Source: Patescibacteria group bacterium (GTDB lineage Bacteria; Patescibacteriota; Minisyncoccia; Phycocordibacterales; PALSA-1337). From it: a stretch of DNA of 64,000 nucleotides. A program made the translations under genes and the position numbers. A model generated the notes under the pieces. That model saw nothing but the letters and a program-made list of their open reading frames with translations. It had not been told where the DNA came from and searched no databases. Of the stretch, positions 12,517-56,298 are shown piece after piece. The stretch is taken from assembly GCA_040388415.1 (NCBI GenBank), contig JAZKBV010000003.1, positions 47,571-111,570 on the forward strand. Reading direction: 5' to 3'. Position 1 is the first letter of the stretch. Each line of letters begins with the position of its first letter.

Positions 12517-13644
12517 TTAGTGCAACGCCAGCCAGAATCCGAATACGACGAAGATAAAATGAATGACCCAGAAACGCATGACAGTTTTTTCTTCACTCCA
12601 ACCTTTGATCTCAAAATGATGATGAAGAGGAGCCATAGCAAAGACTTTTCTGCCAAAGAGGTATCGTGAGCCGACTTGTATGAGGACTGAAAAAGCTTCG
12701 ATATAGAACATGAAGCCGAGGAAAAAGAGAGAGCTGAGCTCACCGATAGCGAGCGTGTTCACTGCGAGGAGGGCACCCAAGCCGAGCGATCCCACGTCGC
12801 CCATCATGAATCGAGCTGGTTTGATATTGAAATACGTATAGGTCGCCAGTGCACCCACGGTTGTCGCATTCAGAATAGCGATCTCTCCAAAACCGTTGAT
12901 CCATGAGAGGAGGGCGAGGGCGCTAAATGTGGTGACGAGCATGCCGCCAGCGAGGCCGTCCATGCCATCAGCGATGTTGACTGCATTCGCTGTGAACATA
13001 ACTACAAGGATGACGATCGGCACGATGAACCAACCTGCATCGATCGCGAAGTTGAAAGGAAAATAGATGAAATGCCACGCAGGCCCGAGTCTCCAATAGA
13101 CCCACCAGGCGGTCACACTTCCAGCGATGAATTGGAGGATGAGCTTTTCATGGACAAGGACACCGCGACGTGTACGCGAACCGAACCAGACTGAGAGGCG
13201 CTTGAACATAGTCCAAGGGAGCGTGATGATGTACCAGAGACGCATCGACCACTGCTTGTGGATGCGTATGAGTATGAGGATATGTTTGAGCTTGCGTGAA
13301 TGGCGTTCTGCGCCATATATGCTCATGAGATCGTCGACTCCTCCCAAAAGAGCAGAGATGAGCATAACTGCAATCGGTACCCACGTAAAACTGCGAGACC
13401 AATTGAAAAGGAATGTGATGATAGCCACTGTCAGGATGACGAGTAGTCCTCCCATGACTGGTGTTTTTGATTTATATGCATGTGAGCCGAGCCCTTGAAG
13501 CTCAGTTTTGGCTCCTTTGACGACATTGTAGCGATAGAGCAGTCGAGTGAGGAATGGTGCCCAGAGAAAAGAAACGATGGTGCCTGCCAGCATAAAACCC
13601 ATAATATAAGCCAAATCAGCGGTTCCTTGGAGAATGCTTAACAT
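12517..13644 (-). CDS. mraY: Phospho-N-acetylmuramoyl-pentapeptide transferase
   Basis: KSKTPVMGGL, NAVNIADGMDGLAGG, MGDVGSLGLG, APLHHHFE motifs; 10 TM. Confidence 0.9.
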   Translation of the reverse strand: MLSILQGTADLAYIMGFMLAGTIVSFLWAPFLTRLLYRYNVVKGAKTELQGLGSHAYKSKTPVMGGLLVILTVAIITFLFNWSRSFTWVPIAVMLISALLGGVDDLMSIYGAERHSRKLKHILILIRIHKQWSMRLWYIITLPWTMFKRLSVWFGSRTRRGVLVHEKLILQFIAGSVTAWWVYWRLGPAWHFIYFPFNFAIDAGWFIVPIVILVVMFTANAVNIADGMDGLAGGMLVTTFSALALLSWINGFGEIAILNATTVGALATYTYFNIKPARFMMGDVGSLGLGALLAVNTLAIGELSSLFFLGFMFYIEAFSVLIQVGSRYLFGRKVFAMAPLHHHFEIKGWSEEKTVMRFWVIHFIFVVFGFWLALH

Positions 13645-18923: not shown

Positions 18924-18960
18924 AACCCGACGCCTGGAGGCCGTCGGGTTGTTTTCTTTT
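18924..18960 (+). terminator. Rho-independent terminator
   Basis: aacccgacg-loop-cgtcgggtt followed by gttttctttt. Confidence 0.6.
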
Positions 18961-19014
18961 GTTTATAGTTGCTACTTAATTTATGATACAATAGTATCAA
19001 ACACCGTTATTTAT

Positions 19015-20952
19015 ATGGACGACAACCGCGTTACATATTTCGCCGAGACTGATGCCCGCAACAAACGGGTAAAGTTTGGCATCAAGTCTATCGATCGCAC
19101 CAAGCACGTCTATGTGATTGGTAAAACAGGCATGGGCAAGTCTACCTTGCTCGAGAACATGGCTGTGCAAGATATTCAGAATGGAGCCGGCATGGCATTC
19201 ATCGATCCACACGGAAAGACCGCTGACCTCCTCCTTGAGTATGTTCCAAAAGAGCGTATCCGCGACGTCATTGTCATTGCGCCATTTGATACGGATTATC
19301 CTATTTCATTCAACGTTCTTGAAAGCGTTGATCCAAAGAAACGTCACCTCGTCGTCGGCGGTCTCATGAGCACCTTCAAAAAGATCTGGGAAGATGCCTG
19401 GTCAGCGCGTATGGAGTATATTTTGACCAATACGCTTCTTGCTCTTCTCGAAGTGCCAGGTACAACTCTCCTCGGTGTCAACCGTTTGCTTTCCGATAAG
19501 GCATATAGAAATGAGATTGTCGCTCAAGTCCAAGATCCTTCGGTCAAGGCTTTTTGGGTAAAAGAGTTCGCCAACTATACTGAGCGTCAGGCCGCTGAAG
19601 CCGTGCCTGCAATCCAAAATAAAGTTGGTCAATTTACTGCAAATCCATTGATCAGAAACATGATTGGTCAGCCGGTTTCGTCTTTTGATTTTCGTAAAGC
19701 GATGGATGAAGGGAAGATCATCATTATCAACCTTTCAAAAGGACGCATCGGCGACGAGAATATGAAGCTCCTTGGAGGATTGCTTGTGACCAAGATTTAC
19801 CTCGCTGCCATGTCGCGCGCTGATGTGCCAGATCGTGTGGTCAAGATGTTGCCACATTTCTATCTTTTTGTGGATGAATTCCAAAACTTCGCCAATGCGT
19901 CATTCTCCGACATTCTCTCAGAGTCGCGTAAATACAAGCTCAACCTCACTATCGCTCATCAATATATCGAACAAATGGATGAAAATGTCAGTGCTGCTGT
20001 ATTCGGCAACGTGGGTACTATGATTGTATTCCGCGTGGGCGCGACTGATGCAGAAGCACTTGAAAAGGAATTCGCTCCTCAGTTCACTATGGAGGATCTG
20101 GTAAATCTCGGACAGTTCCAGATGTATCTCAAGCTTATGATCAACGGACTGACATCTGCGCCATTTTCTGCTACATCGATGCCACCTATACCACAGCAAA
20201 AAATCTCATATGTAAAAGAGATTATGGATGCATCACGCGAGCAGTTTGCTCGTCCACGTGCTGAAGTTGAAGAGATTATTATGAAATTCCATGAGCCGAC
20301 ACCTGCACCAAAGAAGGAGCCTGTAGCCGGTAAAGCGCCCCTTACTGGTGACTTGAGGAAGCCTGAGCAAAAAATGCCGCCAGCTCCTGTACCAAAAGCT
20401 GACGCACCGGCGACTGTGCCAATGCCAACATCAGCGCCAAAGCCAGAGCAAAGACCAGTTTCAAAATTCGTCCCACCAGTGAGAGCGACTGCGCCCTCGC
20501 CGTTGCTCAAAGATACACTTGCAAAGCTTGTTGCACAGCCACGACCTGCGCCGAAGGAAACCCCGCCTCCTGCACCAAAGCTTGAAGTTGAGCCAGCAGA
20601 AGCCAAGCATCAGCCATTCAAAAAAGCTTTTGATGCAGTTCAGTCGACGAAACCTACGCCACTTACAAATCCCGCTCCGGTACCAGTTCCAGTGCCAGCC
20701 GTAAGACCTGTATCGCTTTCTGCTTTGAGTAAACCAAGCCTTGTCTCGTCAGCTTCGCCCGCATCGCCACGTCCCGATCAGAAAGCACAGACGCCTCAAA
20801 ATGTCAGCCAATTAAAAAATGCGTTGGCGGCAGCACTTGCGAAATCGAAGCCCGCGGATACACAGAAGCCAATTGAGACAATTAAGCCAGTTTCAGAGCA
20901 GCCAAACGAGGTTCCCGAAGAAGTGCTCAAGAAGGTCTTGAAGATTGACTAA
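19015..20952 (+). CDS. TraD/TrwB/VirD4-like type IV secretion coupling-protein ATPase with long Pro/Ala/Lys-rich low-complexity C-terminal tail
   Basis: Walker A VIGKTGMGKSTLL, Walker B HFYLFVDEFQNF, TIAHQYIEQM; start moved to ATG 19015 because track ORF start lies inside upstream terminator; last ~240 aa PAPKKEP/PAPVP repeats. Confidence 0.55.
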   Translation: MDDNRVTYFAETDARNKRVKFGIKSIDRTKHVYVIGKTGMGKSTLLENMAVQDIQNGAGMAFIDPHGKTADLLLEYVPKERIRDVIVIAPFDTDYPISFNVLESVDPKKRHLVVGGLMSTFKKIWEDAWSARMEYILTNTLLALLEVPGTTLLGVNRLLSDKAYRNEIVAQVQDPSVKAFWVKEFANYTERQAAEAVPAIQNKVGQFTANPLIRNMIGQPVSSFDFRKAMDEGKIIIINLSKGRIGDENMKLLGGLLVTKIYLAAMSRADVPDRVVKMLPHFYLFVDEFQNFANASFSDILSESRKYKLNLTIAHQYIEQMDENVSAAVFGNVGTMIVFRVGATDAEALEKEFAPQFTMEDLVNLGQFQMYLKLMINGLTSAPFSATSMPPIPQQKISYVKEIMDASREQFARPRAEVEEIIMKFHEPTPAPKKEPVAGKAPLTGDLRKPEQKMPPAPVPKADAPATVPMPTSAPKPEQRPVSKFVPPVRATAPSPLLKDTLAKLVAQPRPAPKETPPPAPKLEVEPAEAKHQPFKKAFDAVQSTKPTPLTNPAPVPVPVPAVRPVSLSALSKPSLVSSASPASPRPDQKAQTPQNVSQLKNALAAALAKSKPADTQKPIETIKPVSEQPNEVPEEVLKKVLKID

Positions 20953-52256: not shown

Positions 52257-52541
52257 ATGAACAAAGTAACCTATGGGCTGGATACTATTATCCAGCACTT
52301 TCCTGAAATGCTTGACCAAGCTAAAGCAGGGCATGTTGTTGTTTCAAAAATTGTCACAGCCAAGGGGATACTGGTTGCACGCGTCGTGCATTTTCCAAAT
52401 ATTTCCCTTTTTTCGCCGGATGACTATTTGAAAAGACAAGTTGAAGCCCTTTTGTTGCATGATTGTGTTGGTCAAATTCGAATCAAGCGTCGCGGAGCAC
52501 ACGGAATTTCGTTTGTTGGTCGACCGCTAATACGCCTTTAG
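52257..52541 (+). CDS. Hypothetical small protein, weak Phd/YefM-antitoxin-like N-terminus
   Basis: 94 aa; no cognate toxin gene adjacent. Confidence 0.25.
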   Translation: MNKVTYGLDTIIQHFPEMLDQAKAGHVVVSKIVTAKGILVARVVHFPNISLFSPDDYLKRQVEALLLHDCVGQIRIKRRGAHGISFVGRPLIRL

Positions 52542-52547
52542 TCTCAC

Positions 52548-52573
52548 AGCGCCGGCATTATCGGCGCTTTTTA
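52548..52573 (+). terminator. Intrinsic terminator
   Basis: agcgccg-gcattat-cggcgct + tttt. Confidence 0.5.
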
Positions 52574-52575
52574 AT

Positions 52576-53427
52576 TTAGCGAGAACTATATTTCTTCAAG
52601 ATATTTGTCGCCATAGTCTCATAGAATCTCGGTAACTCCTCCAAGAATTCGGTTGAAGTAAAACAAGTCATTTTCCGGGCATGTGATATCGACAGGCGAG
52701 AGTGTCTGAGGATCTTTCGGGCCACACGAGGGGAGACCGTTGTGTCGAATGCTTTTCTGTATTCACGAACAGATCTACCTTTGCCAATAGCTTGTTCAAG
52801 CCATAGGGTGACGAGGGTATGCTGACCCTTTTTCATATCTTCCGGCCAATCGAGAGCGTCATCTGAGAGTTGGCGTGCACCGATGAAGTGATAGAAGTAT
52901 TTCTGGCATAGCCTGATGTGTTTTAGCTCTACTTGCATTTTCATCATTAAAGCTAGCAGCGGCACAGACGCAGCCGCTGATTTTAATATATACGGTGATC
53001 TTATTGTTGTTGAGCACATTTTAGAATTTGCGCATTCCATCATGCCGATTTTTCCGATCAGCTTGTTTTTTAGTTTTTTATTTAGGCGCAAACTGTGAAT
53101 CATCTCATCGACCATCGGTCGCAGAGTGGAAAATATAGCTAAGCTATCATGTTCAAACTTTTTTTCATCTCGTATTTCATCAAGCGCTGTCCACGCGGTC
53201 CATGCAACGATTCCTATAGCTACGCACGTTTTGTAATCAAGGTCGTGCTTATTTTTATGGGCAAAATATTTTTGTTCAAATGAGTCGTACGCAAGCTTCG
53301 GTAACAATATGATCGCTCGAAAGCCTTTTTTCTTAATTGTGTCCTTAAGATGTATTTCAACGCACTTCCATTGTTTCTCTGTAATAATATATGAGCTATT
53401 TTTAATACGATGTATCTCTGCTTTCAC
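52576..53427 (-). CDS. Isoprenoid-synthase-fold protein, squalene/phytoene synthase-like (two Asp-rich motifs)
   Basis: TALDEIRDE (DxxxD) and LSDDALDWPEDMKKGQ (second Asp-rich motif cf. NxxRDxxEDxxxGR); 283 aa; overlaps HK gene end by 26 nt. Confidence 0.35.
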   Translation of the reverse strand: MKAEIHRIKNSSYIITEKQWKCVEIHLKDTIKKKGFRAIILLPKLAYDSFEQKYFAHKNKHDLDYKTCVAIGIVAWTAWTALDEIRDEKKFEHDSLAIFSTLRPMVDEMIHSLRLNKKLKNKLIGKIGMMECANSKMCSTTIRSPYILKSAAASVPLLALMMKMQVELKHIRLCQKYFYHFIGARQLSDDALDWPEDMKKGQHTLVTLWLEQAIGKGRSVREYRKAFDTTVSPRVARKILRHSRLSISHARKMTCFTSTEFLEELPRFYETMATNILKKYSSR

Positions 53428-54892
53428 GTGTTGGTAAAGTGATTATGATTGAAGTGCCAAAACCCTTTTTGCTGACGACGTCAATGGTGCCGCCAAGCTC
53501 GCTTGTGATGATGGAGTGCGTGTTCATCAAGCCGATTCCTGTGCCGTGAGATTTTGTCGTCTTTGGATGAGTAAATAATCTTTTGACATGTTCGTCATCC
53601 ATACCGCATCCATTGTCTGATATTGTTATGCGCACCGCATCATGTAGATGCTCACCGTCAATATGAATAGTCTTTTCTACCCCAGCATCTTTGATCGCCT
53701 CGGCTGAAGCGCATGCATCGATCGCATTTGAAAGCAGATTGATCAGCATGTATTGAATGCGTAACGGGTTCGCGTCGATAGTTATCGACTCGCTGATATT
53801 CATCACGATACGCACATTATTTCGCCGAGCATTATACGCTATAACATCGTATGCCATATGCACCTTTTTGTTCAGGTTTGAGCATTTGTTCTCATGAAGC
53901 TGTATAGGCGATATGAGATTGTGTGCGCTTTCCATGAATGAGTTCATCCGTTGCGATGCTTGGAGCGTCTTGTTGATCATTGCTCGAGTTGCATCTATTG
54001 AATATTTTTCTGGATTATTACCAACCTCCTCCATGTATAAACTCATCGAAGTAAGAGGGTTCATCAAGTCATGAATGATACCTCTGGCAAGCTCGCCGAC
54101 TTTCACGACACGATCCATTTCAGCTAGTCTTTTTCGTTGGCTGGCGATAAGCTCCTCCGTGCGCTCACTGACCTTCTGTTCGAGAGTGTTTCGTTCTTTT
54201 TGGAGCAGACACTCAGATATCCTTGCTCTCTGCAATGATCTGTCGATCTCTCTGTTTGAAAGCCAAACAATAAAGCTGATGAACAAAAACATGACCGAAT
54301 AGGTGATGACATCAGTTACGCTTATCTCGTCGAGACGCCAGTCAGGCACATTGAGATGGATTGCTTCGTGAACACCAAGCACTGACAGGCTCAAAATCAT
54401 AATTCCTGCAGTTATAAATCCAAACGTTGAATTTATCAGTACACTTGCAATAGCGATCACGAGCACGGTCAACAATAGTGTTTCAGGCAAACTCGCGCCC
54501 CATTGCCATCCTGTATATATCGTCCCAACTGCATTTATGAACAAAAGTAGGGCAGTGGAGATCCTCCAATAACCTTTCTTTGAAAGATAAAGTAGTGTTG
54601 CGTACAAAATGATGATAAACGTAAAAAGCACGGGGCTCATGCCAGCGTATGCTTCTACTGTCGCAGCATTCCAATAGAGCGTAGCGCCGAGGGTACTCAA
54701 TGCACAAAGTGAAATAACGAGGATGACGTTCAGTATATACTCACGACGTCTGTCATCTTCATTTTTGGACAGTGGCTGAAGCACTCTTTTGAATCCTTTT
54801 GAACATATTATCAAACACAATGTCGCACGAGCCATCCACGCTCGTGCGACCATACCCATTTTCTTTACTGCCTGTACAAGAAAATAAGACAT
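53402..54892 (-). CDS. Sensor histidine kinase
   Basis: ~6 TM N-domain, HisKA (ELARGIIHDLMNPLT), HATPase_c (ISDNGCGMD ... GTGIGL). Confidence 0.85.
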   Translation of the reverse strand: MSYFLVQAVKKMGMVARAWMARATLCLIICSKGFKRVLQPLSKNEDDRRREYILNVILVISLCALSTLGATLYWNAATVEAYAGMSPVLFTFIIILYATLLYLSKKGYWRISTALLLFINAVGTIYTGWQWGASLPETLLLTVLVIAIASVLINSTFGFITAGIMILSLSVLGVHEAIHLNVPDWRLDEISVTDVITYSVMFLFISFIVWLSNREIDRSLQRARISECLLQKERNTLEQKVSERTEELIASQRKRLAEMDRVVKVGELARGIIHDLMNPLTSMSLYMEEVGNNPEKYSIDATRAMINKTLQASQRMNSFMESAHNLISPIQLHENKCSNLNKKVHMAYDVIAYNARRNNVRIVMNISESITIDANPLRIQYMLINLLSNAIDACASAEAIKDAGVEKTIHIDGEHLHDAVRITISDNGCGMDDEHVKRLFTHPKTTKSHGTGIGLMNTHSIITSELGGTIDVVSKKGFGTSIIITLPTRESRDTSY

Positions 54893-54901
54893 GTGTATGT
54901 G

Positions 54902-55129
54902 TTAGCTATTCCAGGGAGCGTAAGCTCCACCGTTCTGTTGACCGAGGGTTCGGGTACCCTGGTCAGTAGGTCTGCGCATCATTGGTGGTTTTGTCATCAT
55001 GTTAATAATAGTTATGTCGACACATAACTGGATACAGCATAACAAGTCAAGATAAAGAACTGATAAAAAAGTCTTCAAAAAGCGATAAAGTTCTGATAAA
55101 GGATTGATGAATTTTTCCAAAGTCACCAT
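54902..55129 (-). CDS. Possible small hydrophobic protein encoded between response regulator and kinase genes
   Basis: 75-aa ORF exactly filling RR-HK gap on same strand; hydrophobic segment FLSVLYLDLLCCIQLCVDITII; could be non-coding. Confidence 0.25.
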   Translation of the reverse strand: MVTLEKFINPLSELYRFLKTFLSVLYLDLLCCIQLCVDITIINMMTKPPMMRRPTDQGTRTLGQQNGGAYAPWNS

Positions 55130-55132
55130 CAG

Positions 55133-55828
55133 TTATTTTCTAAAGCGCGCCAGGTTCGCAGGAATATCCATCATGTACCCATGTCCCGGTACATTAGCTA
55201 TCAAATCTTTCTTTTTACCTGCGTTTATCTTTTTGCGTAAATTGCGGATGTGCGCCTCAACGGTATTTGAAAATGGGTCACTATCCGCTGTCCACACATG
55301 TTCCATAATAGTGCTTCTTGATAAAATAATACTTTGGTGCCTCATCATATACTCGAGTAGCGCAAATTCTTTCTTCGTTAAATGAATGTGTTTACCGCCT
55401 CGCTGTGCGCTATGGGAATTTGGCTCAAGGATCAAATCATCAATGATACGTTGATTACTTTGAACTGTGGGCGTACGACGAGCTACTGCCTTGATACGAG
55501 AACGCAGTTCGATGAATGAGAATGGTTTGACCATGTAATCGTCAGCTCCGCTATCAAGCGCCAGCACTTTTGTTTCTACTCCTCCGGTGACTGAGATAAA
55601 AATAATCGGCGTCATTTTTCCTGCACCTCGAATGTCGCTGCATACGGTCAATCCATTTTTTCCTGGCAAAGAATGATCGAGCAGGATGCAATCGTAATCA
55701 TAGTTTCTTCCGAGAAAAGATCCTTCATTCCCATTTGGCGCAATGTCGACGGCGTGAGTGTCAGCGCGAAGGCCAAGCGACAGGGCATCTGAGATGGAGG
55801 GATCGTCTTCAACAAGGAGAATTTTCAT
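55133..55828 (-). CDS. Response regulator, OmpR/PhoB family
   Basis: Receiver (MKILLVEDD ... DHSLPGKNG ... KPF) plus winged-helix trans_reg_C. Confidence 0.9.
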   Translation of the reverse strand: MKILLVEDDPSISDALSLGLRADTHAVDIAPNGNEGSFLGRNYDYDCILLDHSLPGKNGLTVCSDIRGAGKMTPIIFISVTGGVETKVLALDSGADDYMVKPFSFIELRSRIKAVARRTPTVQSNQRIIDDLILEPNSHSAQRGGKHIHLTKKEFALLEYMMRHQSIILSRSTIMEHVWTADSDPFSNTVEAHIRNLRKKINAGKKKDLIANVPGHGYMMDIPANLARFRK

Positions 55829-55857
55829 GGCGATAGTATATCAGGAAATTATTTCGA

Positions 55858-55886
55858 TTGACAAATGTTCCTGTGGAATATATGTT
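55858..55886 (+). promoter_or_regulatory. Promoter-like TTGACA-17-TATGTT in divergent intergenic region
   Basis: Followed by AAGGGA SD-like and ATG 55900. Confidence 0.35.
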
Positions 55887-55899
55887 GATAAGGGAATTT

Positions 55900-56298
55900 A
55901 TGACAACTAAAAATAATCTTAAACCACATGTGAATGTGGGTCGGATCAGTCACCCGCGAGCTTCATTGTTCATCGGTCTGCTTACTGCAGGCATTGTGAC
56001 CTTTCGTCGTGAGCCATATCTTCGCGAAGTAAGTCTTACCTGTCTTGAAGACCTTCACTTATCTGGCAAGCCGCCAGGGCAATATGTCGAACAGCTTGTG
56101 CTCATCATACCCGATCCGGTAGATGAGCGTCAGCTCACGTCGATCATGGAGGCGCTTTCGGTCAAGTTGTTTCCAAGTTCATCACCAAGTGCTTCAGGTG
56201 AATCTTGGCCACCACCACTCAAAAAACGCGTGCCACTGAAGTATCTTCCTGGACACAAACATCGTGTCGCAATCCACTCATCCCGCGCTCGTCGATAA
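55900..56298 (+). CDS. Hypothetical protein (132 aa)
   Basis: ATG with SD-like aaggga; no motif. Confidence 0.4.
   Translation: MTTKNNLKPHVNVGRISHPRASLFIGLLTAGIVTFRREPYLREVSLTCLEDLHLSGKPPGQYVEQLVLIIPDPVDERQLTSIMEALSVKLFPSSSPSASGESWPPPLKKRVPLKYLPGHKHRVAIHSSRARR

Follow-up and report, generated by a model that had tools for sequence, protein, structure and literature searches.

The window analyzed here is the whole stretch of DNA from a CPR/Patescibacteria genome, 64,000 nucleotides long. A cassette of four genes lies on its minus strand, in the order response regulator (RR), short ORF, sensor histidine kinase (HK), and an enzyme designated X. The genes and the accompanying DNA and RNA elements are as follows, from the 5′ end of the cassette.

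55835–55864, minus strand: sigma-70-like promoter (TTGTCA-18 nt-TATACT) 5′ of the RR gene, found by promoter scan; a consensus match with putative function
55133–55828, minus strand: RR, OmpR/PhoB-type, 231 aa (Pfam Response_reg, 5.5e-22; Trans_reg_C, 2.5e-25)
55046–55111, minus strand: six 11-bp-phased boxes (TTCATC, TTTATC, TTTATC, TTGAAG, TTTATC, TTTATC), candidate regulator sites
55010–55029, no strand assigned: palindrome AGTTATGT-GTCG-ACATAACT from an inverted-repeat search, candidate operator or promoter spacer
54902–55000, minus strand: short ORF of 32 aa plus stop, MMTKPPMMRRPTDQGTRTLGQQNGGAYAPWNS, conserved in related loci; candidate precursor peptide
54822–54850, minus strand: conserved 11-bp stem-loop with a U-rich tail, flagged as terminator-like, in HK codons ~15–24
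53402–54892, minus strand: HK, 496 aa (Pfam HATPase_c, 5e-22; HisKA, 0.01)
52576–53427, minus strand: X, 283 aa, GTG start, with Asp motifs and a predicted trans-isoprenyl diphosphate synthase fold
52548–52568, no strand assigned: GC-rich hairpin from a terminator scan, in the gap where X and a plus-strand 94-aa ORF converge

The sequence-only reading had placed RR, a 75-aa ORF (54902–55129), HK, and X on the minus strand, and all of them are present there; the overlap that it described between X and the end of the kinase gene amounts to 26 nt. Its proposal that signaling is coupled to the X gene gained support, because the RR–gap–HK–X order with the HK/X overlap recurs in approximately 20 loci, all retrieved via X, with flanking genes that differ between loci. 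The shared segment is 11–32 nt long in the seven loci in which it was read, which suggests translational coupling of HK and X. RR is conserved at 41–82% identity upstream of HK in the related loci. This recurrence supports a close tie between X and the two-component system. Among more distant relatives of X, that in L024 has no adjacent peptide and RR genes, and that in L010 stands alone. The cassette encodes neither an exporter nor a processing protease.

The gap between RR and HK was previously regarded as being filled by the hydrophobic 75-aa ORF. That frame is open only in the window and in its closest relatives (L001 and L032/L033); stop codons interrupt it in more distant loci and in most loci overall, and only its last 32 codons (55000–54902) form a conserved gene. 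The hydrophobic N-terminal part is translated conserved noncoding DNA, namely the box array and the palindrome, and the conserved 32-aa peptide is hydrophilic (GRAVY −1.16). Rather than filling a gap, this peptide holds the key to the locus in its conserved C-terminal P-W-x-x-stop. It ends with GGAYAPWNS, placing the Trp third from the C-terminus; the Trp of ComX is the third or fourth from the end. In 18 distinct CPR loci, the RR–HK gap contains an ORF with the P-W-x-x-stop ending. The codon differences in A-P-W-N-S of the close clade and in N-P-G-T-P-W-R-D of the distant clade are all synonymous and at the third position, indicating that the peptide C-terminus is under protein-level selection. 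Since the frame of the short ORF relative to HK also differs among loci, the shared ending and its purely synonymous variation identify the small ORF as a real gene. Its start codon is probably at 55000, with alternative ATGs at 54997 and 54982. The peptides of the relatives are 26–42 aa long with variable N-termini, and strict conservation is limited to the last five to eight residues before the stop. The N-terminal segment is hydrophobic in the distant clade, and the stop precedes the HK start codon by 6–10 nt in the close clade. A Gly-Gly lies seven residues from the end of the window peptide and is not kept across loci. The peptide has no match to PF05952 (ComX family). A strain-specific pheromone explains so nearly invariant a C-terminus no better than an enzyme-recognition box or a cis-acting arrest motif does.

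Upstream of the peptide ORF, the boxes lie at −90, −79, −68, −46, and −35 from the palindrome center, in a single phase modulo 11, with direct repeats spaced 33 and 11 nt. Perfect matches to YTTTATCN4YTTTATC are confined to this array in the 64-kb window, and the boxes are conserved in L006, L008, L018, and other loci. The boxes are probably bound by the OmpR-type RR. The palindrome has 8-nt arms with 100% complementarity and is directly followed by a −10-like TATTAT (55005–55010). Its DNA is nearly invariant in 10 loci, despite X proteins that are only 36–69% identical. Downstream of the peptide ORF, pairing of the HK stem-loop is kept in 93.6% of cells among 10 loci, compared with 25–46% in slid controls. 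Double-sided changes occur at 7 of the 11 pairs, and some of these alter the amino acids encoded. This covarying hairpin, located approximately 50 nt downstream of the peptide stop in the clade of the window, is a candidate partial terminator or processing signal between the peptide gene and HK–X. The distant loci L012, L014, L023, and L031 have instead a canonical intrinsic terminator directly after the peptide gene, beginning 3–10 nt past the stop codon. A peptide gene directly upstream of HK with a hairpin or terminator after it matches the pattern of pheromone and RiPP precursor genes.

The OmpR-type assignment of RR in the sequence-only reading agrees with its Response_reg and Trans_reg_C domains. 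In NCBIfam it comes closest to regulators of the RppA/CopR/PhoB type, with every score under the family cut-off, and its match to GerE (E = 0.0013, 18.7 bits) is below the 23.5 cut-off. A hydropathy scan and reading of the sequence gave approximately six transmembrane helices in HK (residues ~53–213) with very short loops, followed by a coiled linker, the H-box IHDLMNPL, and HATPase_c. The dimerization domain matches HisKA (PF00512) weakly (E = 0.01), and HisKA_3 (PF07730) was absent in the Pfam search. The N-terminus of HK, MxxFLxQAV, is common to the compared loci. Six transmembrane helices with minimal loops are typical of peptide-pheromone receptors.

X contains the two Asp-rich strings noted earlier, ALDEIRDE at residues 81–88 and DDALDWPEDMKKGQ at residues 189–202. 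The first motif (FARM) is D83-x3-D87 (53164–53187), and the second (SARM) is D189-D190-x2-D193-x3-D197 (52822–52863). None of the six Asp residues varies in a family alignment of 50 sequences reaching down to ~16–20% identity. The second position of the first motif, D83-E-I-R-D87, is variable, and the consensus of this motif in a 142-sequence alignment of X-domain relatives is yDdilD. The SARM is the invariant S-D-D-A-L-D, a canonical DDxxD, preceded by the invariant Q186; hhalign places this segment on FQVQDDILD of IspA. Conservation is poor over the first 60 residues. In the model of X, the motifs are at the C-terminal ends of two long helices (residues 62–88 and 168–200), and the predicted structure has the all-α trans-isoprenyl diphosphate synthase fold. 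The top 50 Foldseek matches in the PDB are all polyprenyl synthases, the closest being genuine chain-elongating enzymes. No Pfam-A family, including PF00348, matched X by hmmscan at E ≤ 1, and none in NCBIfam did. A profile search against the PDB gave E of about 1. One relative, P0023, has a subthreshold match to PF00348 (E = 0.011). Candidate kin of X are the trans-polyprenyl diphosphate synthases (PF00348; FPP, GGPP, octa-, deca-, and solanesyl-PP synthases) and the aromatic prenyltransferases of the same fold, Ord1 and MoeN5. X resembles the synthases in its helix-end Asp motifs, the KS/KT lysine, and the Q-x-x-DDxxD context of the SARM, whereas it differs in the apparent reduction of the first motif to DxxxD, the lack of significant profile matches, and a signaling rather than biosynthetic setting. 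Neither a GGKRxR close to the N-terminus nor an RRG following the FARM was found when the X sequence was read by eye; D87 is followed by EKKFEHDS. Because these motifs bind IPP in chain-elongating synthases, chain elongation by X is unlikely.

Similarity of X to ComQ, the enzyme of the Bacillus comQXPA system, was examined by hhalign. The X family profile aligned with ComQ over both motif regions (E = 5.2e-4, probability 31%), with D83 and D87 on D67 and D71 of ComQ, its first and fifth FARM Asp. The same profile gave E = 8.5e-3 with IspA, and ComQ with IspA gave 3.6e-3. These alignments support placing X in the same fold superfamily as ComQ. The two differ in that ComQ falls inside PF00348 (E = 1.8e-13) and X outside. 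The first and fifth FARM Asp, both retained in X, are essential in ComQ, and ComQ substrates require Trp at the second to fourth position from the C-terminus (PMC5331326). The SARM position of ComQ must be N/G-D-x-x-x, a pseudo-SARM; an N-to-D change strongly cuts Trp geranylation, and DDxxD was judged unsuited to Trp isoprenylation (PMC5331326). The same requirement for NDxxx/GDxxx was reported in a preprint on StheQ (10.64898/2026.08.29.745113). With its canonical DDxxD, X would differ from ComQ in chemistry if it prenylates Trp. StheQ from Sphaerobacter thermophilus (Chloroflexi) is a ComQ-family peptide Trp prenyltransferase of solved structure (bioRxiv 10.64898/2026.08.29.745113). StheQ is 19% identical to ComQ and, like X, is a very divergent enzyme of the IPPS fold beside a short ORF that has a Trp close to its C-terminus, showing that such enzyme–peptide pairs exist beyond Firmicutes. 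By its description, StheQ has FARM DDxxD and pseudo-SARM NDxxx, compared with DxxxD and DDxxD in X; StheX has 69 aa and its Trp is second from the C-terminus (same preprint), compared with third in the window peptide.

As in comQXPA, the cassette comprises four adjacent genes on one strand, with overlaps, with a multi-pass membrane kinase, a response regulator, and a short precursor peptide in which a Trp two to four residues from the C-terminus is the sole constant feature. The order is A-X-P-Q, not Q-X-P-A, the host is a CPR/Patescibacteria bacterium, and a 2014 census found no comQXPA-like loci outside Firmicutes (PMC4008528). In the criteria of that census, ComP has HisKA_3 (PF07730), HATPase_c, and transmembrane segments, ComA has Response_reg and GerE, and ComX has 52–73 aa, a location between comQ and comP, and a C-terminal Trp (PMC4008528); of the ComX features, the peptide shares the C-terminal Trp alone. 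HK is of HisKA rather than HisKA_3 type, RR is OmpR/Trans_reg_C rather than NarL/GerE, and the peptide, with 26–42 aa and a highly conserved rather than hypervariable C-terminus, is encoded in the RR–HK gap. The three-component pheromone systems of Gram-positive bacteria, such as plnABCD, comCDE, and agrBDCA, also have the peptide gene immediately 5′ of the kinase gene, a polytopic receptor kinase, and direct-repeat regulator boxes before the peptide gene that suggest autoinduction. The window peptide differs in having no recognized double-glycine leader, the locus in encoding neither an ABC exporter nor a processing enzyme of the AgrB type, the modifying enzyme in its prenyl-synthase fold, and RR in being of OmpR rather than LytTR type.

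Here, we propose, with slightly better than even confidence, that the locus is a self-contained peptide-signaling cassette of CPR/Patescibacteria, an analogue rather than an orthologue of ComQXPA, built from different parts. The 32-aa peptide would be transcribed from its own promoter within the RR–HK gap. X would bind an allylic prenyl diphosphate through the two invariant Asp motifs and Mg2+ and attach the prenyl moiety to the invariant Trp of the peptide. The lipidated peptide would leave the cell, probably following N-terminal trimming, and be detected by the membrane-embedded six-helix domain of HK, which would phosphorylate RR. On the six phased boxes, RR would then enhance transcription of peptide, HK, and X in a positive feedback, and the hairpin past the peptide gene would keep the peptide transcript more abundant than that of HK–X. 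This proposal is favored by the linkage of RR, gap, HK, and X amid different neighbors, the evidence for the small ORF as a gene, the fold superfamily that X shares with ComQ, the minimal-loop six-helix kinase, the peptide gene directly 5′ of HK and followed by a hairpin or terminator, the phased repeats unique in the window upstream of that gene, and the Trp position, which fits the substrate rule of ComQ. It is weakened by the invariant DDALD SARM, which ComQ does not keep, by the weak X–ComQ sequence similarity, by a C-terminal motif that is near-invariant over deep divergence whereas ComX pheromones are hypervariable, by the lack of an exporter or processing protease in the cassette, by the distant X relatives outside the full cassette, and by the absence of prenyl-diphosphate supply genes: no MEP, MVA, IPPS, or UppS gene was found in the 64-kb window, which does encode polyprenyl-phosphate-dependent enzymes (MraY-like GT4, Wzx, and Wzy). 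The distribution of MVA and MEP genes across CPR is patchy, and these bacteria may rely on scavenged isoprenoid precursors (PMC6107057).

Other roles of X would account for parts of these data. The earlier assignment of the motifs to a squalene/phytoene synthase, with head-to-head prenyl condensation under two-component control, is hardly credible. X shares the class I isoprenoid-synthase α fold and two Asp-rich motifs with these enzymes (PF00494; CrtB, CrtM, HpnC/D, and SQS) and contains DxxxD and DxxED-like strings, but the HMM search gave no PF00494 match even at E ≤ 1, and its structural neighbors, polyprenyl synthases throughout the top 50, are not of the SQS/CrtM/HpnC type. A more probable though still unlikely alternative is that X is an enzyme of small-molecule isoprenoid metabolism, either a terpene synthase of class I or else a prenyl diphosphate synthase or transferase with a nonpeptide acceptor. 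The two-component system would control the synthesis of its lipid or terpenoid product or sense that product, with the peptide serving separately, for example, as a kinase modulator. The intact Asp motifs, the second readable as an NSE/DTE-like DDxxDxxxD triad, the best structural matches, which are chain-elongating synthases, and the relatives lacking peptide and RR are in line with it, as is the presence, in 98 of the 150 best family matches (approximately two-thirds), of an N-terminal domain with homology to class II terpene cyclases. This domain matches drimenol synthase with E = 1.9e-13, and its DxDD is invariant, so that the fused proteins have the classic class II plus class I terpenoid-synthase architecture. 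However, such an enzyme would not account for the invariant P-W-x-x-COOH peptide, which sits between RR and HK in all cassettes examined, X lacks the IPP-binding motifs, its family profile is closer to ComQ than to IspA, and other terpenoid-pathway genes are not nearby in the 64-kb window. Alternatively, X could be a noncatalytic or ligand-sensing accessory that binds an isoprenoid diphosphate and informs the kinase, for example to report on the supply of lipid carriers or on isoprenoids from a host. The X/HK gene overlap, the missing IPP-site motifs, and the possible dependence of CPR on scavenged precursors (PMC6107057) would suit this role, which we consider very improbable, since all metal-binding Asp of both motifs are invariant below 20% identity, as is typical of active enzymes, and the many fusions to a cyclase domain with intact DxDD point to catalysis.

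The short ORF could instead act in cis, as a regulatory leader or as an arrest peptide like TnaC, SecM, or MifM, in which a ribosome stall at P-W-x-x-stop controls read-through of the hairpin or terminator and translation of HK–X, X being an unrelated regulated enzyme. The strict last residues behind a variable N-terminus and the close-clade stop just ahead of the HK start codon are as expected for such a peptide, and the terminator of the distant loci is near enough to the stop to be masked by a paused ribosome. The hydrophobic N-terminal segment of the distant-clade peptides also recalls secretion-monitoring arrest peptides. In the window clade, however, the hairpin is beyond the masking reach of a ribosome at the stop codon; therefore, an arrest mechanism would not be common to both clades. 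The constant presence of a prenyl-synthase-fold enzyme in the cassette is also unexplained, and a nonexhaustive search found no alternative antiterminator pairing. We regard arrest as improbable.

As a ComQXPA analogue, the cassette may represent an undescribed cell-to-cell signaling system of these tiny CPR bacteria. The X enzyme family numbers approximately 1000 cluster representatives. We suggest only tentatively, as a possibility short of an even chance, that ribosomal peptide signals of this kind are widespread and unrecognized in CPR: the Trp of W-x-x-COOH would be terpenylated by a new enzyme family that current HMM libraries miss, the chain would be cyclized to give a terpenoid–peptide hybrid in the many lineages where a class II (drimenyl-type, DxDD) cyclase is fused, and a six-transmembrane HK that senses the product and an OmpR-type RR would autoinduce the operon. 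In that case, ultra-small bacteria would have quorum sensing or host/episymbiont signaling.

Two further elements flank the cassette. The −10 box of the RR promoter ends 6 nt before the RR ATG, which suggests that the leader of the RR transcript is very short or absent. At the opposite end, the hairpin at 52548–52568 has a T-run on its plus-strand side and none after the stem on the minus strand. It is possibly a bidirectional terminator that closes the cassette, where the X transcript would end.

The four minus-strand ORFs that the sequence-only reading had placed in 52576-55828 were all found in the ORF check. The anatomy of the locus is real; what had to be tested was the identity of X (the 283-aa protein proposed here as a peptide Trp prenyltransferase) and that of the small ORF. 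The ORFs are as follows.

55133-55828, minus strand: response regulator (RR), Pfam Response_reg and Trans_reg_C (OmpR-type)
54902-55129, minus strand: 75-aa ORF, from the ORF call
53402-54892, minus strand: histidine kinase (HK), Pfam HATPase_c, with a weak HisKA match
52576-53427, minus strand: X, 283-aa ORF, from the ORF call, with a 26-nt overlap with the HK gene

X had been read as an isoprenoid-synthase-fold gene of the squalene/phytoene synthase type. In scans at E ≤ 1, X had no Pfam or NCBIfam match, so the expected PF00494 hit was absent even at this threshold; the small ORF likewise had no match in the Pfam and NCBIfam scans. Searches of PDB sequences by phmmer and by profile, with X, A1, and A6 as queries, gave nothing significant. 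GGPPS appeared in the profile searches at E about 1 only, and the top matches were designed repeat proteins. The AlphaFold2 model of X, calculated with the family alignment as input, is all-helical (pLDDT 90.4, pTM 0.89), and all of the top 50 matches of this model in a Foldseek search of the PDB were trans-polyprenyl diphosphate synthases. The two Asp-rich strings were located at residues 81-88 and 189-202. The model puts each motif at the C-terminal end of one of its two long helices (residues 62-88 and 168-200), the positions occupied in this fold by the first and second Asp-rich motifs (FARM and SARM). The model, the Foldseek result, and the motif placement thus uphold the first reading as far as the fold is concerned. 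The squalene/phytoene part was wrong; given the missing PF00494 match and the Foldseek matches, this identity was rejected, and we give it almost no credence. An exhaustive profile search (E ≤ 1e-3) collected 1038 cluster representatives of the X family, and the 18 close homologs, from CPR metagenome bins, are all annotated as hypothetical proteins. W76, D83, D87, S150, Q186, D189, D190, D193, and D197 are invariant in an alignment of 50 sequences spanning down to <20% identity.

The genomic context of the homologs was obtained from exact-protein lookups, a reference-genome scan, and a metagenome scan. All named records with a homolog belong to CPR/Patescibacteria, namely, Paceibacterota (a synonym of Minisyncoccota), Saccharibacteria, Parcubacteria, or Falkowbacteria. 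In tblastn searches with the three proteins of the window, nearly all loci of judgeable length showed the same arrangement: RR, a gap of 130-320 nt, HK, and X directly 3' of the HK gene or overlapping it. The genes flanking this cassette vary from locus to locus. Among the related loci found through X homologs (numbered L001 onward), two depart from this order: L024 (4506-6819) has HK and X with no adjoining regulator or P-W peptide, and L010 (4885-6675) has X alone, in a fused form, beside EF-Tu and ribosomal protein genes. Two ORFs without a Pfam match flank the cassette in the window (52257-52541, plus strand, 94 aa; 55858-56298, plus strand, 146 aa). ORFs of similar size and placement occur beside the L001 cassette and are absent in more distant loci, and the two were therefore excluded from the cassette.

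Translation of the RR–HK gaps revealed a short ORF whose C terminus is always P-W-x-x-stop and whose stop codon is followed within a few nucleotides by either the kinase start or a terminator. The loci are grouped into a close and a distant clade.

Peptides encoded in the RR–HK gap (C-terminal part where preceded by dots)
Window, close clade: MMTKPPMMRRPTDQGTRTLGQQNGGAYAPWNS
L001, close clade: ...NDGAYAPWNS
L032, close clade: ...NGGAYAPWNS
L003, close clade: ...NQELAPWNS
L006, close clade: ...GDSYAPWNS
L034, close clade: ...GATFAPWNS
L009, close clade: ...GEFAPWNS
L016, L018, L020, close clade: ...GEEFAPWNS
L007, close clade: MKATEFTPWSS
L008, close clade: ...VGFVPWND
L012, L014, L023, L028, distant clade: ...LNPGTPWRD
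L015, distant clade: ...NPGTPWRN
L031, distant clade: ...NAGTPWRG

All differences among the A-P-W-N-S codons are synonymous (GCT/GCC, CCC/CCA/CCT/CCG, AAT/AAC, and AGC/AGT). The same holds for the N-P-G-T-P-W-R-D codons, in which all four CGN codons of Arg were seen. The codon table indicates that the peptide C terminus is under protein-level selection, and by these comparisons the RR–HK gap holds a real 32-codon gene at window 54902-55000. The 75-aa hydrophobic ORF of the first reading did not survive the comparison. Outside the window, L001, and L032/L033, stop codons break its frame, its "hydrophobic" N-terminal part is translated conserved regulatory DNA, and the 32-aa peptide is hydrophilic (GRAVY −1.16). 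A hydrophobic membrane protein of 75 aa was rejected because most loci do not keep the frame open, and an N-terminal extension of HK was rejected because the frame relative to the HK gene varies between loci. The close-clade peptides share a mid-peptide motif, (Q/S)(S/G)(T/A)R(P/R), exemplified by DQGTRT, DQSTRP, HQSTRP, and RSARRP, and in most of them a Gly lies 6-9 residues ahead of the C terminus (e.g. NGG|AYAPWNS); the motif and the near-terminal Gly may be processing or recognition sites. In public annotation, the actual gene of 27-35 codons is missed or mis-sized, as gene callers placed no gene in the gap of L001, L003, and L034 and over-called an 88-aa ORF in L032 (4198-4464), the same over-extension as the 75-aa ORF.

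The DNA and RNA elements around the peptide gene are listed below.

55111-55046, minus strand: six 11-bp units (TTCATC, TTTATC, TTTATC, TTGAAG, TTTATC, TTTATC), from the sequence
55029-55010, minus strand: nearly invariant palindrome AGTTATGT-GTCG-ACATAACT, from locus comparison and repeat search
55005-55010, minus strand: −10-like TATTAT, 4 nt before the peptide ATG
55835-55864, minus strand: promoter-like site of the RR gene, from a promoter scan, with the −10 box 6 nt from the ATG
54850-54822, minus strand: 11-bp stem-loop inside HK codons ~15-24, from a terminator scan

The 11-bp array was too degenerate and short for Tandem Repeats Finder and was caught by pattern and repeat searches. Within the 64 kb, YTTTATCN4YTTTATC matches perfectly at the box array only, where the direct repeats have spacings of 33 and 11 nt. 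In the related loci, the boxes stand at fixed positions (−90, −79, −68, −46, and −35) from the palindrome, in a single phase modulo 11. Because OmpR/PhoB-family regulators bind helically phased direct repeats of this kind, the array is predicted to be bound by the cassette RR. TATTAT(A)AA, 4-8 nt 5' of the peptide start codon, is the sole −10-like element kept across loci. No convincing −35/−10 pair was found for the peptide promoter, and TTGACT at window 55046-55051 is not kept in other loci. For the RR gene and the short ORF alike, a −10-like hexamer stands only 4-6 nt from the ATG, and a Shine–Dalgarno sequence is not apparent, a pattern that suggests mRNAs with little or no leader in this organism. 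In the stem-loop within the HK gene, 93.6% of cells are paired, compared with 25-46% in slid controls, and 7 of the 11 pairs have double-sided changes; equivalents are found in L001, L003, L006-L009, L016, L018, and L020. The stem is thus conserved with covariation, and some of its compensatory changes alter amino acids (A-R-A/A-R-A to A-R-V/T-R-A or A-R-S/N-R-A); the HK protein sequence at this site is evidently constrained by structure in the RNA or DNA. Distant-clade loci have a canonical intrinsic terminator that begins 3-10 nt past the peptide stop codon. Precursor-peptide genes are usually short, with their own promoter and a leaky terminator 5' of the partner genes. An Rfam scan of window 52400-56100 gave no match.

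The cassette resembles Bacillus ComQXPA in combining a prenyl-synthase-fold enzyme, a short peptide with a Trp near its C terminus, a polytopic kinase, and a regulator. The kinase spans the membrane with about six TM helices joined by minimal loops, as peptide-pheromone receptors do. The ComQ and ComX sequences used for comparison were confirmed by exact lookup. In profile–profile alignments, the X family matched ComQ with an E value of 5.2e-4 over 153 collinear columns, and it matched IspA, represented by a similarly shallow alignment, with 8.5e-3 in the second motif and C-terminal part only; ComQ and IspA, both PF00348 members, matched each other with 3.6e-3. D83, E84, and D87 of X align with D67, D68, and D71 in the FARM of ComQ, and the X segment ARQLSDDALDW--EDMKKGQHTLVT aligns with the ComQ segment AQISGDYYVLLSGNRSDIEKNKHTLIY. 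The signal is weak but consistent, and X is about as close to ComQ as ComQ is to a canonical synthase. The Trp of the P-W peptides is always third from the C terminus; that of ComX is third or fourth, and the action of ComQ requires the second to fourth position (PMC5331326). In StheX, the Trp is second from the C terminus (preprint 10.64898/2026.08.29.745113).

Membership in comQXPA was judged by the criteria of the published census (PMC4008528). X has no match to PF00348, whereas ComQ scores 1.8e-13; the window peptide has 32 aa instead of the 52-73 aa of ComX and no PF05952 match; HK shows only a weak HisKA match in place of the HisKA_3 of ComP; RR has Trans_reg_C in place of the GerE domain of ComA; and the gene order is A-X-P-Q, not Q-X-P-A. 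The weightiest difference lies in the SARM. ComQ enzymes have a pseudo-SARM, N/G-D-x-x-x, in which replacement of N by D strongly reduces activity, and the same study describes DDxxD as unsuited to the isoprenylation of Trp (PMC5331326), whereas DDALD is invariant in X. Given these departures from the census criteria and the DDALD motif, the cassette is like ComQXPA in architecture but no more than a very distant or convergent relative of it, and the chemistry of X may be different from that of ComQ. As judged from sequence, the X lineage escapes Pfam and NCBIfam and has an active-site motif set different from that of ComQ. The 2014 census did not find comQXPA-like loci outside Firmicutes (PMC4008528), and a 2026 preprint describes one ComQ/ComX-like pair in Chloroflexi (10.64898/2026.08.29.745113). 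Our full-text searches for literature linking CPR, Patescibacteria, or Saccharibacteria to ComQ, ComX, or a peptide pheromone returned nothing relevant. The phylum, the enzyme family, and the peptide motif (P-W-x-x-COOH) are new here, and the kinase and regulator classes are different ones; all functional steps are predicted.

Among the best 150 X-family hits, 98 have at least 500 aa (most about 600-650 aa), and X corresponds to their C-terminal half. Over their N-terminal ~320 residues, these long relatives share homology with the class II terpene cyclase domain of a bacterial drimenol synthase (PDB 9mhs, E 1.9e-13) and also with squalene–hopene cyclase (E 6e-6), and this part contains an invariant P-x-D-x-D-D(T) motif; no homolog of this domain was found in the window by tblastn. 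Such fused genes are present in L008 (2531-4462), L022, L009, L010, L013/L025, and L026 (X-family proteins P0022, P0028, P0032, P0033, and others). In L008/L022, L009, and L026, the fused gene comes after the kinase; L008/L022 and L009 have RR and P-W-x-x peptides as well, and in L026 the upstream sequence is cut off. The fused relatives can be read as enzymes that transfer a prenyl group to Trp and then cyclize the prenyl chain, or as class II plus class I synthases of small-molecule terpenoids.

Here, we propose, with somewhat more belief than doubt, that the cassette serves signaling by a prenylated peptide. That X is a small-molecule isoprenoid enzyme would be consistent with its intact Asp motifs and with the class II fusion; this reading offers no explanation for the peptide, and we regard it as unlikely. 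The near-invariant peptide C terminus would suit an enzyme-recognition box (compare CaaX) as well as an arrest peptide acting in cis. A short ORF acting in cis as a leader or arrest peptide would account for a C terminus kept across deep divergence, unlike the hypervariable ComX, and for the distant-clade terminator abutting the peptide stop codon; however, the hairpin of the window clade is about 50 nt downstream and does not fit, and X is left unexplained. We consider this reading rather improbable. A sensor or accessory role of X is considered very improbable.

CPR bacteria are episymbionts of ultra-small size and minimal genome, most of them uncultured, and to our knowledge their signaling is almost entirely uncharacterized. 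If the peptide-prenylation model is true, a conserved autoinducing peptide cassette would make cell–cell or symbiont–host communication directly testable by means of one recombinant enzyme and a synthetic peptide, Trp prenylation of the ComQ/ComX type would reach far past the Firmicutes of the 2014 census and the Chloroflexi of the 2026 preprint, and these bacteria would keep or scavenge prenyl diphosphates for signaling besides cell-wall lipid carriers. The class II cyclase-fused relatives hint at terpenoid-cyclized peptides, which would be a new RiPP chemistry.

As to the supply of the prenyl donor, no MEP, MVA, IPPS, or UppS genes were found in the 64-kb window, which neither refutes nor confirms the model. 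The window encodes an MraY-like transferase, Mur ligases, MurB, Wzx, Wzy, and many glycosyltransferases, and pathways of the MraY/Mur/Wzx/Wzy type need polyprenyl-phosphate carriers. In CPR, MEP genes are sparse, and MVA genes, although common in Microgenomates, are rare in Parcubacteria (PMC6107057). A surface-glycan synthesis cluster of about 24 kb (window 20973-45236) contains several GT1/GT2/GT4/GT11/GT17-type glycosyltransferases, GDP-mannose 4,6-dehydratase, a DegT aminotransferase, epimerases, and methyltransferases, together with a Wzx-like flippase and a Wzy_C+TPR protein. The MraY-like GT4 (12517-13644) is outside this cluster, and the Mur ligases and MurB are also encoded elsewhere. 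At 18949-20952 (plus strand), a 667-aa protein with weak matches to TrwB/TraG-type coupling proteins and HerA/DUF87 ATPases is encoded by a gene that adjoins a DUF4015 glycosyl-hydrolase-like gene.
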